64,000 bases of DNA from a virus. The DNA lies in the IMG/VR virus record IMGVR_UViG_3300019458_000032, positions 12,588 through 76,587 of that record; one strand, written 5' to 3'. Under the pieces are notes generated by a model. It ran no database searches. It was not told where the DNA came from and was given only the letters and a program-made list of their open reading frames with translations. Shown here piece after piece: positions 550 through 61,311 of the stretch (its first letter is position 1; each line of letters starts with the position of its first letter). Position numbers and translations under genes: made by a program.

Positions 550-996
550 ATGTCAGAAGAATTGGCACCAGTATTAGAAACCCCTAAAGAAGAAGTTAAT
601 ATTCTGGACGTAATTAATAATCCAGAGAATCCAGCAACGGAAGAGCAAGTTAAAGCTGCTACAGAAGAGTTGGCAGTTAAAGCAACGACTCCTGAACAAC
701 AAATTGAGCAAGTTGCGCAGTTCTTTAAGCTTTATATGCAAGTTTTTAAGAATCAAATCGAAGGTTTGAATAATAAGGCTTTGAAGAGAATTATTACAAG
801 ACTTGTAGAATTTCCTTTACAGGAAGATGAAATTACATGGCCCTTTAAGGAAGAGAAGGAAATTTTTGCAGTAGGTCATAGACTTTTAGAAGCCAAATAT
901 GGTATGGCTCAATATGTTTTAAATAATCAAATTCAAGAACTAGGTTCTGAAGATAAAAAAGAAGAAGGAGTTAAAGAAAATGGCGAGCAAACGTAA
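550..996 (+). CDS. hypothetical protein (acidic, helical)
   Basis: ORF with likely ATG at 550, tightly packed between neighbours. Confidence 0.6.
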   Translation: MSEELAPVLETPKEEVNILDVINNPENPATEEQVKAATEELAVKATTPEQQIEQVAQFFKLYMQVFKNQIEGLNNKALKRIITRLVEFPLQEDEITWPFKEEKEIFAVGHRLLEAKYGMAQYVLNNQIQELGSEDKKEEGVKENGEQT

Positions 997-3730: not shown

Positions 3731-4104
3731 TGAAAAAAGTTATCATAGCTGGTTCTAGAACTTTACTTCCCTCGGTAGGATTTATAGAAAGATCTTTAAG
3801 AATGGTAGGATTAACTGACAATCAATATCGCATTATAAGTGGAAATGCATATGGTGTAGATCAGGTTGGAGAAGCGTTGGCAAAAGAATCCGGTTGGCCC
3901 TTCGAAATCTTTCCGGCTGATTGGGAAACTCATGGAAAATCCGCCGGTCCTATTAGAAATAAAGAAATGGCTCATTATGCAGATATTTTACTTTTAATAT
4001 GGGACGGAAAATCAAAAGGTTCTTTAAATATGAAAAAGAATATGCTTAATTTAGGTAAACCAGTTCACGAAATAATTATCAAAAGAGATTGGAATTTGAC
4101 ATGA
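3730..4104 (+). CDS. SLOG-superfamily (DUF2493/YspA-like) protein
   Basis: KVIIAGSR, ISGNAYGVD, FPADW-HGKSAGPIRN-EMA, WDGKSKGS. Confidence 0.8.
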   Translation: MKKVIIAGSRTLLPSVGFIERSLRMVGLTDNQYRIISGNAYGVDQVGEALAKESGWPFEIFPADWETHGKSAGPIRNKEMAHYADILLLIWDGKSKGSLNMKKNMLNLGKPVHEIIIKRDWNLT

Positions 4105-5875: not shown

Positions 5876-8039
5876 ACATGATTTAATCTACGGTAAAGCT
5901 TCCGTGGATCGAATTGTTAATATTGAAGTCACTGACGATGTTGCAGAGATTTATCGTGAATTAGAAGATGGTTCTATAAATGTCACTGTAGTTCCTAATA
6001 AATTTTGGATATTAGCTAATCAGCAATTGGATAGAAATTTTGTAAGACTCAAGGGTGATCTTCATTATAAATGGGGTCGTCAATTTTCAGAACGTAAACA
6101 ATTCTCTCAATTCAGATATTTTACTAAACAACGTGATGAGGATATATTTTCTGTATATGATGCGAAAGAAGCTTTAATGCTTAAAGATGGTTATACATAT
6201 TATAAAAATATGAGACCACAAGATGTATCAATTCTATCATTCGATATTGAAACAACATCATTAGATCCAAATATTCCAGAAGCCACAGTTCTTCTTATTT
6301 CTAATACACTTAGAAAGAATGGAAAGATTGAGAAGAAATTATTTTCTTTTGAAGATTCTGGAAGTGCTGGGCAAATGATAGAGGACTGGTGTGATTGGGT
6401 AAGAAAAGTTAATCCAGCTATTATATGTGGACACAATATTTTTTCTTTTGATTTACCATATTTAAATTCTATTGCTGAAAAATGTGAAGTCGAATTAAAA
6501 TTGGGTCGCAATGGAAATATTGTTAAATTTGATAAGTTTGAATCACAAAAAAGAATAGATCAAACTAGAGATCAGAATTATAAACGTTCTCATATTTATG
6601 GTAGAGAAATTATTGATACAATGTTTCTTGCGATTGATTATGATATTTCAAAAAAATATGAATCATATGCATTAAAGAAAATCATTGCTCAAGAAGGTTT
6701 AGAGAAAAAAGATCGTGTATTTTATGATGCCGCTAAAATTAGAGTTAATTATAAAGATCCTGTAGAATGGACTAAAATAAAAGAATATTGTAAAGATGAC
6801 GCAGATGATGCATTAGCACTCTTTGATTTAATGTCTGCACCCTTTTTCTATATGACTCAATCTGTTCCTAAATCATTTGAATTGATGATTCAATCTGCAA
6901 CCGGATCAAAAATTAATTCTGTAATGATGAGAGCTTATTTACAACAAGGACATAGTCTTCCAAAAACAAATCCAGTTGTTGCATATCAAGGTGCAATATC
7001 TTTAGGTAAAGAAAATGCTGGAGTATTTAATAATGTTTGGAAAGTTGACGTTGCAAGTCTATATCCTTCAATTATGATTGAATATGAAGTTTGTGATAAA
7101 GCTAAAGATCCAAATGAATACTTTAAAACTCTTGTGAGGGTGTTTACGGAAAAAAGATTAGAATATAAAAAGAAAGCTAAAGAGGATAAATATTATGATG
7201 ATCTCCAGGCCGCGTTCAAAATATTCATTAACAGTGCTTATGGTTTCCTTGGCACTCAAGGGCTATCGTTTAACTCTCCATCTAATGCGTCGTTTATCAC
7301 AGAAAAAGGGAGAGAGATTCTTAACAAGGCAATTGCTTGGGCAGCCGATCAAAACCTTCAACTTGTCAATGCCGATACAGATTCTATTTCTGTTACTGAG
7401 AAAGATGGCTCATATATTTCTGTGGATAAACGCAAAGCTTTACTTCAAAGCTTATGTTCTCTATACCCTAGCAGAATCTCATGGGAAGACGACGGATATT
7501 ATACAAAAGTAATTACGGTTGGAACGAAAAATTATATCTTAAAGAAAGAAGATGGTAAAGTAACTATTAAAGGTTCTGCATTAAAAGGTAAAACTCGTGA
7601 ACCCGCATTAAATGAATTCATGAATAAAATGATTGATAAACTTCTAAATAATGATACAAATTATTTATCATTGTATTATGAATATGTTAAAGAAATATTA
7701 CAAATTAAAGATATTACTCGTTGGGTAATGAGAAAATCTATTTCTGAAAATACAATAAAATCTACACGTCTTAATGAAACAAAGATTATAGATGCCATTA
7801 AAGGAACAGAATATAGAGAAGGTGATAGAGTTTACATGTTCTTTAAATCTGACGACACTCTTTGTTTACTTGAAAAATATGATGGTGATTATTCTAGAGA
7901 AAGATTTTTAGAAAAACTTTATAATACAGTTGAAATATTACATTTGGTAATAGATGTAAATCAATTTCCAGATCTAAGTCTAGCAAAGAAAACTATCATG
8001 AAAAGATATCATATTGACTTGGATAATTTTACATTATGA
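5865..8039 (+). CDS. family B DNA polymerase with 3'-5' exonuclease
   Basis: Exonuclease motifs DIET, GHNIFSFDLPYL and YCKDD. Polymerase motifs DVASLYPS, K-INSAYG and DTDS. Confidence 0.95.
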   Translation: MTSEHDLIYGKASVDRIVNIEVTDDVAEIYRELEDGSINVTVVPNKFWILANQQLDRNFVRLKGDLHYKWGRQFSERKQFSQFRYFTKQRDEDIFSVYDAKEALMLKDGYTYYKNMRPQDVSILSFDIETTSLDPNIPEATVLLISNTLRKNGKIEKKLFSFEDSGSAGQMIEDWCDWVRKVNPAIICGHNIFSFDLPYLNSIAEKCEVELKLGRNGNIVKFDKFESQKRIDQTRDQNYKRSHIYGREIIDTMFLAIDYDISKKYESYALKKIIAQEGLEKKDRVFYDAAKIRVNYKDPVEWTKIKEYCKDDADDALALFDLMSAPFFYMTQSVPKSFELMIQSATGSKINSVMMRAYLQQGHSLPKTNPVVAYQGAISLGKENAGVFNNVWKVDVASLYPSIMIEYEVCDKAKDPNEYFKTLVRVFTEKRLEYKKKAKEDKYYDDLQAAFKIFINSAYGFLGTQGLSFNSPSNASFITEKGREILNKAIAWAADQNLQLVNADTDSISVTEKDGSYISVDKRKALLQSLCSLYPSRISWEDDGYYTKVITVGTKNYILKKEDGKVTIKGSALKGKTREPALNEFMNKMIDKLLNNDTNYLSLYYEYVKEILQIKDITRWVMRKSISENTIKSTRLNETKIIDAIKGTEYREGDRVYMFFKSDDTLCLLEKYDGDYSRERFLEKLYNTVEILHLVIDVNQFPDLSLAKKTIMKRYHIDLDNFTL

Positions 8040-58937: not shown

Positions 58938-59450
58938 TTAAATCAGATTTTTGAAGAATTTTTTACTCAAATCGTTTATAGCGTATATGGGAGAAATTAT
59001 TTTTAAATTATTTATTATTGAAGCAAATTCTTCAGCTTCAGGCATATTATTGAATACTCCAACCACTATATTTGTATAATATGTACTCTTCAGAGTTACA
59101 TATACAAGACTCTTCTTTATCTTAATAACAACCTTATATTTAGAAACTTGATTCTCGGCATATAGAGTATACCCCAATTCCTTGTAATATTCAACCCAAT
59201 ATTGATATTTCAATGATATATCAGATCTATCATCCTCTATTGTTTCTATAAATTCAAATTCAAGTTTATTACAATCCAATTGCATGTTTCTATAATTATG
59301 AACCCCACTACATAACATACCAATATGTCTTGTAACAGATCTTAATAAATCAATACTCCATGTAATATACAACCTCTTATCTTCTTTATTAATGAAGCAA
59401 TAAAGACCCATACGAGGTAGGTTATACAAGACTGTAAATAAGTTTACCAT
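58938..59450 (-). CDS. GIY-YIG-like nuclease domain protein (degenerate)
   Basis: GLYCFIN...LYITWS...RH...H-N...FEFIE...EY. Confidence 0.55.
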   Translation of the reverse strand: MVNLFTVLYNLPRMGLYCFINKEDKRLYITWSIDLLRSVTRHIGMLCSGVHNYRNMQLDCNKLEFEFIETIEDDRSDISLKYQYWVEYYKELGYTLYAENQVSKYKVVIKIKKSLVYVTLKSTYYTNIVVGVFNNMPEAEEFASIINNLKIISPIYAINDLSKKFFKNLI

Positions 59451-59455
59451 CTAAT

Positions 59456-59465
59456 ACAGTTGTTA
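59456..59465 (-). promoter_or_regulatory. phage promoter-like motif TAACAACTGT
   Basis: Only 5 bp from the ATG at 59450, implying a leaderless transcript. Confidence 0.6.
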
Positions 59466-59879
59466 ATAAAGCTGCATCTTACAACGCTTTACAATATCTT
59501 TAAAAATAGAAACAAATACAAAAGGTTAAATCTATTGTAAAGGTCTAATAGACAAGCTATTAGAGTTATTAGATGCAATATATTGGAGATAATAAACTAT
59601 GTTTCTATAATAAAAATCATGTAAGTATTTGTATTGACTGAGCATTAAGGGCAACACGTACTACGGTCCCTCTACCCCCCTCTACCTTATAGCTGACTCT
59701 GACGAGCTGTTTGAACAGAGGGTCGTTGATGAGTTTACTTCTTCTCTCTCTATCTCTACTATCCTATCTCTATTATCTATTCTCTTGCCTATTCTCTTGG
59801 TATACAGCATATGCTATACAGCTTAAGGGAATGGACGACAGCATTACCTAAGACCTTTTACATACATGCAAATTGCACC

Positions 59880-60000
59880 TGTCTACATTTTTGACAGTGT
59901 ATAGAAGTTTGACAGTGTAGTGATTTCACACACTTAAAGAGTTTCTGTATATTCTTTTGACAGTGGCGAACTTTTTTACAGATGTGATTTCAGCTACTTA
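59880..60000 (+). promoter_or_regulatory. duplicated enhancer-like array: 4x TGT-N11-ACA and 2x IHF-like sites
   Basis: Sites at 59880-96, 59898-914, 59946-62 and 59964-80 (last one TGG); TTTGACAGTG occurs three times; GTGATTTCA-N3-ACTTA at 59920 and 59984. Confidence 0.65.
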
Positions 60001-60004
60001 GCAC

Positions 60005-60021
60005 TTGGCACAGCGTCTGCA
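60005..60021 (+). promoter_or_regulatory. sigma-54 (-24/-12) promoter
   Basis: TTGGCACAGCGTCTGCA: GG(60007-8)-N10-GC(60019-20), close to consensus YTGGCACG-N4-TTGCW. Confidence 0.75.
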
Positions 60022-60032
60022 ATACTGGTTTG

Positions 60033-60446
60033 CAAGCGACGCAATTGTAGAACGTAGCCTCTGTCGTAGACGGCACCGCGATGTAACCAGTGCTTGTCTT
60101 GTTTCACCTAGAGGTTGTGCTTGAAGTGAGCAAGACTGTAAGTCATTGAGGGCGAGAAGCTAGTCGAAAGGTTGAGAGCTAACCTGTCTATGGCATGGGA
60201 AGAGTGAACACTCACGAGTACCATTAAGACCTAACAGCGTTAGATTAAATACCAAGTGGTCTCAATCTTATACCCTGTACTGAAGTCCTTTCGAGGATTG
60301 TATAGAAAATATGGTATTATAGCCGCTGAGAACAACGCACATGAGAACAACCCGAGCGATAAGACCCATGTCAAAGTTAGGGCTTATGTGAAATAAACTC
60401 AGTGAATTGCTATTGCTGACGTGTCTCGCGTTAGCAAGTGAATAGA
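60033..60446 (+). ncRNA. candidate large structured ncRNA/leader
   Basis: No + strand ORF of 60 aa or more, GC-enriched relative to flanks, many hairpins including a UUCG loop; bounded by the sigma-54 promoter and a hammerhead. Confidence 0.6.
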
Positions 60447-60516
60447 AGACGAAACAGGGAAATACTGTCAAAAGTATTCCCTGTAGCGTAGTTATTTCAC
60501 TACGCCTGATGAGTCT
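60447..60516 (+). ncRNA. hammerhead ribozyme, type II (HH1); predicted cleavage after GUA 60485
   Basis: AGAC-GAAA-[CAGGGAAATACT gtcaaa AGTATTCCCTG]-TA-[GCGTAG ttatttca CTACGC]-CTGATGA-GTCT. All core nucleotides and three stems present. Confidence 0.92.
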
Positions 60517-60538
60517 AATATTGTAAAGGAGAAATACA

Positions 60539-60808
60539 ATGGAAAATCAAGAGAAGTTAAATTCTATTCAAGCTCAAATTGAGGCTCTTAAAGCTGAAGC
60601 TAAAGCTTTAAAGCCGAAAAAAGAGCATACTCTCTCATTCAAAGTGAATGAGAAAGGTACAATTTCTGTATATGGATTGCAGAAATTTCCAGTGAGTTTG
60701 TATCCCACACAATGGGAAAAACTCTTTAAAACTATGCCTGAACTCATGAAGATTGTTCAGCCTTTAATTGACGCTGCTAAAGCTGCTAAAGAAGTTAAAA
60801 CAGCCTAA
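60539..60808 (+). CDS. small protein (coiled coil plus KV-EKG-ISVYGL-KFPVSLY-QW domain), flanked by two ribozymes
   Basis: AAGGAG RBS; first ORF after the sigma-54 promoter. Confidence 0.75.
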   Translation: MENQEKLNSIQAQIEALKAEAKALKPKKEHTLSFKVNEKGTISVYGLQKFPVSLYPTQWEKLFKTMPELMKIVQPLIDAAKAAKEVKTA

Positions 60809-60842
60809 TTCGACCTACCCTTCCCCTTACCCCTACCCTTAA

Positions 60843-60904
60843 GGTCGAAACGCTGTAGTGAGCCTATTACAGCGTCTGAGAGTGTATCTTTCACTGAGGA
60901 GACC
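60843..60904 (+). ncRNA. hammerhead ribozyme, type II (HH2); predicted cleavage after GUC 60876
   Basis: GGTC-GAAA-[CGCTGTAGT gagcct ATTACAGCG]-TC-[TGAGAG tgtat CTTTCA]-CTGAGGA-GACC. Confidence 0.9.
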
Positions 60905-60909
60905 ATAAG

Positions 60910-61311
60910 ATGATGACATATGATCGTGCTAGAGAGTTGTATAACTCTGCTAGAAATAAAGCTAAAGGAAAGCCTATAGGAAATAATCTTAGGCTTGTTA
61001 AAGTTTGTATGGTTGATAAGTATTACGAGCAAGAGGATGTAGTGATTACATTGCCTGTATATGGGATTGTTTATCACGACACTGTAATTGTAAAGATATA
61101 TCCTTGTGATGCACCGTTTAATGAATATAGGATATATAATGGTGGATGGTTCTCAATAACAACAAAGAAGAATATTAATAAGTTTATACCCTATACTGTT
61201 GTTCAACGAAAGGGTGAATGGTTTGTTCAAGTTGAAGGTAATCTTAAACCGTTTGTTGAAGGTTTAAAGTTGGGGATAAAATTAAATGTATTTCTGGCAC
61301 CTATTGTTTAA
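60910..61311 (+). CDS. phage hypothetical protein
   Basis: YHDT-IV...GGW-S-TTK-IN motif; SD GAGGAG lies within the HH2 core. Confidence 0.7.
   Translation: MMTYDRARELYNSARNKAKGKPIGNNLRLVKVCMVDKYYEQEDVVITLPVYGIVYHDTVIVKIYPCDAPFNEYRIYNGGWFSITTKKNINKFIPYTVVQRKGEWFVQVEGNLKPFVEGLKLGIKLNVFLAPIV

Follow-up and report, generated by a model that had tools for sequence, protein, structure and literature searches.

The window, by which we mean the whole 64,000-nt stretch of DNA analysed here, is the final 64 kb of a 76.6-kb IMG/VR virus record whose completeness is estimated at 88%. Its minus strand carries the genes for the large terminase, the portal and the major head protein, and a run of small genes occupies the plus strand from position 60539. 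Inside a 1.1-kb divergent intergenic region (59451-60538) sits the stretch under study, an ORF-free leader preceded by a putative sigma-54-type promoter and followed by a type II hammerhead ribozyme (HH1) and by the gene for an 89-aa protein (Table 1). The loci compared with it are labelled by L-numbers, L002 being the window's own record.

Table 1. Features of the leader region in the window and of the RNA found in the same place in a sister clade
Feature	Coordinates	Strand	Basis
Putative sigma-54-type -24/-12 element, TGGCAC-N5-CTGCA	60006-60021	+	Consensus match
Leader body, ORF-free, GC-enriched	60032-60446	+	ORF list, GC, fold
Possible domain enclosing Ha and AGAAGCUAGU (60155-60164)	60062-60195	+	MEA structure
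Hairpin Ha, with CACCUAGAG (60105-60113) at the tip	60096-60136	+	Pair probability 0.83-0.90
Hairpin Hb, with UUCG loop 60290-60293	60270-60317	+	Inner helices 0.94-0.95
Long hairpin Hc, with two UGAGAACAAC copies	60324-60404	+	Pair probability 0.99-1.0
11-bp hairpin Hd, adjoining the hammerhead	60413-60437	+	Pair probability 0.94
Type II hammerhead HH1	60447-60516	+	Pattern and stem scan of the whole record
Shine-Dalgarno sequence AAAGGAG, ahead of the 89-aa gene	60526-60532	+	
89-aa first gene	60539-60808	+	Conserved in relatives
Second type II hammerhead HH2	60843-60904	+	Whole-record scan; cleavage predicted after C60876
Sister-clade RNA	L017:6272-6553, L026:1355-1588, L079:3691-3944	-	Hammerhead-flanked
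Sister-clade RNA, partial	L093:2-70, L023:5259-5285	-	

The promoter region

As the definition of a sigma-54-type site we used TGGCAC-N5-TTGCW, with the GG and the GC one helical turn apart. The element TGGCACagcgtCTGCA agrees with this consensus at 10 of 11 positions and has the GG-N10-GC spacing, and the 76.6-kb record contains two sites of this quality, both on the plus strand, against 0.31 expected. The position of the element at 60006-60021 therefore predicts a transcription start near 60032. Equivalent sites stand ahead of the leaders of L061, L003, L067, L029 and L025, and the predicted sigma-54-type -24/-12 sites are a family trait. Further sites were seen elsewhere: a perfect one at record 2674-2689 (window -9914), about 70 nt upstream of an ORF at record 2757; a weaker one at window 41520 (-), in the gap before the head-gene block; and four to seven in the divergent region of each of the relatives L073, L092, L067 and L038, three of those in L073 being head-to-tail repeats of 16 nt. 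A domain search of the record returned no enhancer-binding protein (Sigma54_activat), Sigma54_DBD, RtcB, sigma-54 or single-subunit/T7-type RNA polymerase, and our literature search found no paper on sigma-54-driven early transcription in phages.

The DNA upstream of the predicted start is recognisable in a relative, as window 59844-60032 aligns by blastn with L061:3504-3684 (-) at 64% identity over 194 nt. This segment looks enhancer-like, with TTGACA-containing repeats and a GTGATTTCA box in addition to the -24/-12 element. C-rich, G-poor tracts of CUCUACCCC-like units were also noticed at window 59665-59800, upstream of the sigma-54-type site, and again at 60817-60840, immediately past the point where the 89-aa gene ends in its stop codon; L061 (~3880-3925 (-)), L003 (~800-835 (-)) and L038 (~6745-6765 (-)) have kept the upstream tract. 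A Rho-loading site and an enhancer element are both possibilities for such tracts.

The leader and its fold

Only two plus-strand ORFs of at least 30 aa overlap 60033-60446, and neither is credible: the one at 60005-60124 (39 aa) has a TTG start and opens upstream of the predicted transcription start, and the one at 60256-60396 (46 aa) has a GTG start without a Shine-Dalgarno sequence. A hidden small protein was ruled out, as tblastx between leaders gave no conserved frame, and neither an internal sigma-70 promoter nor a plus-strand terminator was found within the leader. The GC content is 0.445 over the 415 nt, against 0.333 for the window as a whole; measured in 200-nt windows it is 0.44-0.50 over 59900-60299 and about 0.40 by 60499, and that of the flanking genes is 0.26-0.34. 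The original prediction, that the stretch has no substantial plus-strand ORF and a GC content above that of the genes around it, is thus borne out. It had also been unable to match the stretch to a tRNA, tmRNA, RNase P, SRP or intron, and the searches agree. Rfam 15 at the gathering score gave no match anywhere in the window (the models included GOLLD, ROOL, HEARO, OLE, raiA, 6S, RNase P, tmRNA, SRP, introns and riboswitches), the same collection at E<=10 over 59400-61000 gave nothing plausible for 60033-60446, and ARAGORN detected no tRNA or tmRNA gene in the window. Neither iterons nor an AT-rich unwinding element were found in the leader, whose sole tandem feature is a 10-nt motif in two copies.

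When the thermodynamic ensemble was folded over the predicted transcript 60032-60446, five helices were robustly predicted, with pair probabilities of 0.83-1.0, and these make up four hairpin domains (Ha to Hd in Table 1). The inner part of Hb spans 60275-60305, with the UUCG-capped helix 60284-60299 inside. The UGAGAACAAC copies of Hc lie at 60327-60336 and 60342-60351; TGAGAACAAC, which had been reported to occur twice, is indeed seen at 60327 and 60342, both times on the 5' strand of this hairpin. The middle third of the leader is ambiguous in fold. The best alternative there pairs 60062-60073 with 60184-60195 in a long-range helix of 12 bp, which has a pair probability of 0.72 and would close the larger domain listed in Table 1; comparison with relatives lent this domain no support. 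All the stems listed in the original prediction are present in the sequence, but two of them are weak or sterically impossible as written: CTGTC/GACGG (60061-60073) has a probability of 0.07 and is displaced by the 12-bp long-range helix, and GAGTG/CACTC would leave a loop of 2 nt, the fold preferring GUGA/UCAC at 60204-60215. AGGTT/AACCT and CTAAC/GTTAG fall in the ambiguous middle, and the stems 60096-60136 and 60413-60437, the nest around TCCT-TTCG-AGGA and GCTGAG/CTCAGT are recovered with pair probabilities of 0.83-1.0.

For the leader by itself, the z-score of the fold was -2.26 (sense strand) and -0.96 (antisense strand), the value of -3.84 referring to a longer stretch that includes the hammerhead and the promoter. 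Twenty coding windows of equal length from the same genome had a mean z of -0.34 (sd 1.20, minimum -2.14), and their minimum free energies ranged from -62 to -116 against -118.8 for the leader, which was the most stably folded of the 21 windows. By this modelling, the fold appears to go modestly beyond what the composition predicts. Folding is strand-specific, because seven G-U pairs lie within the five robust helices; in six of seven leaders, folding is better for the sense than for the antisense strand.

The hammerheads and the first gene

Type II hammerheads were defined by a core CUGANGA...GAAA with a U-H dinucleotide, closed stems I and III with an open stem II, and a G10.1-C11.1 pair. 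The pattern scan found two of them in the record, HH1 and HH2. HH1 has the core (GAAA 60451-60454, CUGAUGA 60506-60512), the topology and covariation-backed stems of this type, the stems being of 7, 4 and at least 7 bp. Its stem II is formed by AGAC (60447-60450) as the 5' strand and GUCU (60513-60516) as the 3' strand, its stem III hairpin extends over 60455-60483 and its stem I hairpin over 60486-60505; U16.1 is 60484, and cleavage is predicted after A60485. The expected leader product, with its 3' end at this predicted cut, is about 454 nt long. In an alignment of 16 family hammerheads the core is invariant, and 14 of the 15 consensus pairs show compensatory changes. Within the family, type II hammerheads on the strand that corresponds to the window's plus strand were seen at over a dozen separate loci, and in the relatives the hammerhead ends 5-45 nt (in one case 115 nt) ahead of a ribosome site and ORF. 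Since the hammerhead always lies close before the ribosome site, its constant partner is the start of the mRNA and not the RNA upstream.

The hammerhead models of Rfam did not report HH1 even at E<=10 in a 100-nt slice, nor did they report HH2, and the type II hammerhead of L017 (L017:6554-6605 (-)) was missed as well; the type III hammerhead beside it in L017 reached 36.1 bits, below the gathering score of 48.5. We read this as low sensitivity of the models to these type II forms.

The first gene encodes an 89-aa protein with the invariant motif K..KG....YG...FP..LY..Q, which belongs to no Pfam or PHROG family. Cuts at HH1 and HH2 would release it as a 391-nt piece (window 60486-60876). Brackets of two type II hammerheads around this gene were observed in four lineages, namely in the window, L061:2638-3133 (-), L067:2203-2631 (-) and L092:762-1432 (-). 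The bracketed piece would be ~390-430 nt long, would carry a 5'-OH and a 2',3'-cyclic phosphate and could, in principle, be made circular by an RtcB-type ligase of the host.

Related loci

Relatives of the terminase number in the hundreds, P0003 being among the closest with 72% TerL identity. Cultured phages reach 28% TerL identity at most, and the family is therefore an uncultured one, with contigs of up to ~95 kb from varied metagenome samples. Alignment A1, of 24 terminase relatives, retrieved 58 viral and 80 metagenomic loci. Other routes were less productive: the stretch had neither a near nor a distant DNA match among GenBank phages; IMG/VR searches with the 89-aa protein, with the 170-aa neighbour protein or with a single TerL sequence gave no relatives; the 133-aa protein matched only itself in a set of 5.8 billion proteins; a 17-mer common to the promoters of the window and L061 had only chance-level matches in IMG/VR; and a scan of genome contigs gave two distant MAG contigs only and no clue to the host.

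The position of the leader is conserved. The layout of the family is a sigma-54-type promoter, 140-690 ORF-free nt, usually a hammerhead, and then the first ribosome site, and an ORF-free leader follows sigma-54-type sites in L061, L003, L067, L029, L025, L156, L160 and L161. In seven of the nine lineages measured, the GC content of the leader is 10-16 points above that of the locus. L061 (68% terminase identity) is fully syntenic with the window, having in order the C-rich tract, the TTGACA repeats, the sigma-54-type site, ~385 ORF-free nt, a type II hammerhead, the 89-aa homologue and a second hammerhead. In L003 (65%), the sigma-54-type site is followed by ~310 ORF-free nt, a hammerhead and the end of the contig; L067, L029 and L025 have the identical order, and their leaders are among the GC-enriched ones. 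The high-GC relatives L156, L160 and L161, reached through the 89-aa protein, have leaders that are 330-690 nt long and lie downstream of perfect sigma-54-type sites, with no hammerhead in the pattern scan, so that the leader there would remain attached as a 5' UTR. L160:1661-2345 (+) and L161:1640-2327 (+) have in common a leader of ~690 nt that follows a perfect sigma-54-type site; the final ~470 nt of this leader, with very long hairpins, are almost identical in the two, and the first ~220 nt differ.

The sequence of the leader behaves otherwise. In blastn, the window aligns with L061 across the promoter and the 89-aa gene but not across the leader, and comparisons of the leaders with one another by MAFFT, blastn, nhmmer and tblastx yielded no significant similarity. 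Against dinucleotide-shuffle controls, the 7- and 8-mers shared between leaders are at chance level (window and L061, p=0.43; window and L003, p=0.25); the collinear islands CACCTAGAG, AGAAGCTAGT and TTAAGAC, which had been considered as signs of homology, were dropped on this ground. RAGCTAGT, a CTAG-containing 8-mer chosen post hoc, is present in four leaders against ~0.07 expected from background, and an alignment of the leaders anchored on it gave no consensus pairs. Covariance model R1, built on the window's own central fold, had no match in the relatives with filters on or off. Judged by such comparisons, the leader itself is not conserved at 65-72% TerL identity. A comparison of relatives, of the kind put forward with the original prediction, gave no support for a conserved structure: the leaders could not be aligned, no consensus pair emerged and R1 stayed blank. 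The earlier claim of a noncoding RNA with a ribozyme-defined 3' end stands as to the end, where a genuine type II hammerhead is found, and more broadly as to a noncoding unit at the RNA level, outside any known family, with a promoter ahead and a recurrent layout. The analysis gave no evidence that the leader is a conserved, structured RNA, and the decoy, sponge or anti-defence roles suggested for it are speculative.

In a sister clade the slot is occupied by a different RNA. It is conserved, ORF-free and 230-280 nt long, occurs in L017 (to which L019 and L075 are identical), L026 and L079, and is flanked at its 5' end by a type II and at its 3' end by a type III hammerhead (Table 1), with compensatory changes in 22 of 52 predicted pairs. 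Its elements include a hairpin whose loop reads CAAAUAG, a core of GAGCGUCCUUGCGCAACAAGACGAGCUG, and a long hairpin that ends in a 3-bp stem and a GGGA loop; the RNA had no match in Rfam, and a pattern scan of IMG/VR returned only contigs already in the comparison set. Terminase identity is 68-79% among L017, L026 and L079 and 65-72% for the window, L061 and L003. At comparable divergence, therefore, a true structured RNA in this slot stays recognisable, whereas the window-type leader does not. At E<=10, models of the 5' domain (R2) and the 3' domain (R3) of the sister-clade RNA matched neither the window nor L061 nor L003. L038 shows a third arrangement, in which a promoter and a small ORF are followed by a type II hammerhead, 320 nt without ORFs, a type III hammerhead and the 89-aa gene.

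Discussion

The stretch is a real noncoding leader, predicted to be severed by a ribozyme. We consider it real at the RNA level because it is noncoding, folds in a strand-specific manner, shows a GC excess in seven lineages of phages that are AT-rich elsewhere and would be cut off by a ribozyme that covaries. As to its role, we tentatively propose that the leader acts in cis through its bulk properties, not through a specific fold, and that it is folded, left untranslated and then discarded. The rightward early transcript would open with it as an untranslated module. The host's RNA polymerase, carrying sigma-54, would start near 60032 and make ~415 nt of GC-enriched RNA, which would fold into a string of stable hairpins. 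The type II hammerhead would form once 60447-60516 has been transcribed, one strand of its stem II being supplied by the final bases of the leader, and HH1 would then cut in vivo after A60485. The freed leader would have a 5' triphosphate and, at its other end, the terminal 11-bp stem III hairpin and the 2',3'-cyclic phosphate that hammerhead cleavage leaves. The remaining mRNA would carry a 5'-OH, open with the stem I hairpin and start 53 nt upstream of the AUG of the 89-aa gene. Disposal of the leader would in this way give every early cistron a defined, context-free 5' end, and the arrangement would be the natural counterpart of a ribozyme insulator.

The role in cis agrees with the proposal of Perreault et al. 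2011 on processing, with the regular occurrence of a hammerhead next to a ribosome site, and with the relatives in which the leader would remain attached. In addition, a leader whose sequence is unconstrained at 65-72% TerL identity fits a requirement at the level of composition or structure better than one for a specific fold. However, 300-700 nt of mere spacer in a compact phage genome needs explaining, and we know of no reason that demands a long leader downstream of a sigma-54 promoter. Moreover, the sister-clade RNA and the L038 piece argue that the slot houses free-standing RNAs.

The released ~454-nt RNA might indeed be a free-standing, early, trans-acting ncRNA, for example a sponge, a decoy or an antisense regulator of a host factor. 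We take this alternative seriously, although we think it less likely than not, and between the two the role in cis is slightly favoured. Bona fide excised RNAs fill the slot in L017, L026 and L079, and L038 has its bracketed 320-nt piece without ORFs. Stable terminal hairpins and a 2',3'-cyclic phosphate would be expected to slow 3' exonucleases, and the cleaved RNA should be stable. The GC enrichment in seven of nine lineages, a leader z-score lower than that of all 20 coding controls, and the G-U pairs with their strand-specific fold also speak for this alternative. A trans-acting RNA would evolve fast, only short seeds or host-specific targets being of importance, and host-specific regulatory RNAs likewise show poor conservation. 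On the other hand, neither sequence nor structure of the leader is conserved at a divergence where the sister-clade RNA is, R1 finds nothing in the relatives, the z-score is modest, and no target or partner was identified; release is not universal either, as the high-GC relatives keep a leader without a hammerhead.

Two further explanations were weighed, and both are less likely, mainly because the GC excess and the length of the leader are maintained. The stretch could be functionless spacer or recombination debris in a divergent control region, the hammerhead trimming whatever lies upstream. The failure of the leader to align between a promoter region (64%, 194 nt) and an 89-aa gene that do, the chance level of k-mer sharing and the lack of a consensus fold all agree with this. 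Neutral sequence in a phage of 33% GC would nonetheless be expected to drift towards AT, and in seven lineages the slot has an excess of 10-16 GC points; its length is held at 300-700 nt in compact genomes, and its sense strand folds better than the antisense strand, which makes debris improbable. It is more improbable still that the stretch is an element of the DNA, such as an origin of replication, a site of packaging or of the terminus, or a series of sites for protein binding, with only incidental folds in the RNA. Divergent intergenic regions like this one of 1.1 kb are often home to control or terminus elements in phages, and RAGCTAGT recurs in four leaders where 0.07 would be expected, the motif having been chosen post hoc. 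Nevertheless, iterons and an AT-rich unwinding element are lacking and the GC content is above the genome average; recognition sites would be expected to be conserved, which the leader is not; and the strand-asymmetric folding and the hammerhead downstream point to RNA.

One could also imagine, though we think it rather unlikely, that a sigma-54-driven phage family sets aside the opening few hundred bases of its early transcript as a ribozyme-delimited RNA slot that each lineage fills differently. The ~454-nt RNA of the window would then be a fast-evolving, host-specific decoy or sponge acting in trans, or even a signal to RtcR, the sigma-54-linked RNA-repair regulator of the host, feeding back on its own promoter.

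Several systems invite comparison with the stretch. Like the leader, the lambda nut and HK022 put systems, which are cis-acting phage leader RNAs, have their place at the start of an early operon; unlike them, the leader has no boxA/boxB-like or put-like element that we could identify, and nothing links it to antitermination. GOLLD and ROOL are likewise noncoding RNAs in phage genomes, and differ in that the leader has no Rfam match. RiboJ is an engineered ribozyme insulator derived from satellite RNA. As in RiboJ, a hammerhead between promoter-derived RNA and the ribosome site would strip a variable 5' context and leave a 5' hairpin; here, however, the arrangement is natural, and the piece removed is long and GC-enriched. 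The RNA of the sister phages (L017/L019/L075, L026, L079 and, in part, L093 and L023) shares with the leader its family, its position in the early region immediately ahead of an early gene, its lack of ORFs and its hammerhead boundary. In contrast to the leader, it covaries and is cut on both sides, and R2 and R3 miss the window and its nearest relatives. A further precedent is that of Perreault et al. 2011 (PMC3088659), who described type II hammerheads flanking single genes in prophages, proposed that long phage transcripts are processed by them, and left the function of the arrangement open. The type II topology, the individual bracketing of small genes and the processing proposal are common to both cases, as is a possible pseudoknot between loop I and the 3' tail (UAUU in loop I, AAUA after stem II). 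The first hammerhead here differs in following a 415-nt noncoding leader from a sigma-54-type promoter, and a leader of this kind is not described there (PMC3088659).

Hammerheads that flank phage genes have been known since 2011. In the window, the first of them is tied to a sigma-54-type promoter, to an extended noncoding leader and to the conserved gene for the 89-aa protein, which lies between ribozymes. What is gained from this stretch alone, whose role is so far a proposal, is modest. The family, however, offers a natural comparison, its members having an unconserved leader, a conserved and doubly cut RNA, or a leader without a ribozyme; comparing them could tell whether the ribozymes serve mRNA maturation, the release of ncRNA, or both. 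Finally, a second ORF-free gap of ~600 nt was observed in the plus-strand operon of the record, upstream of the window (L002:4416-5014). ARAGORN detected no tRNA in this gap, and no tRNA or tmRNA gene in the first 12.7 kb of the record, and Rfam reported nothing for the gap at E<=1; it is made up in part of four GC-richer blocks, each bounded by its own terminal inverted repeat.
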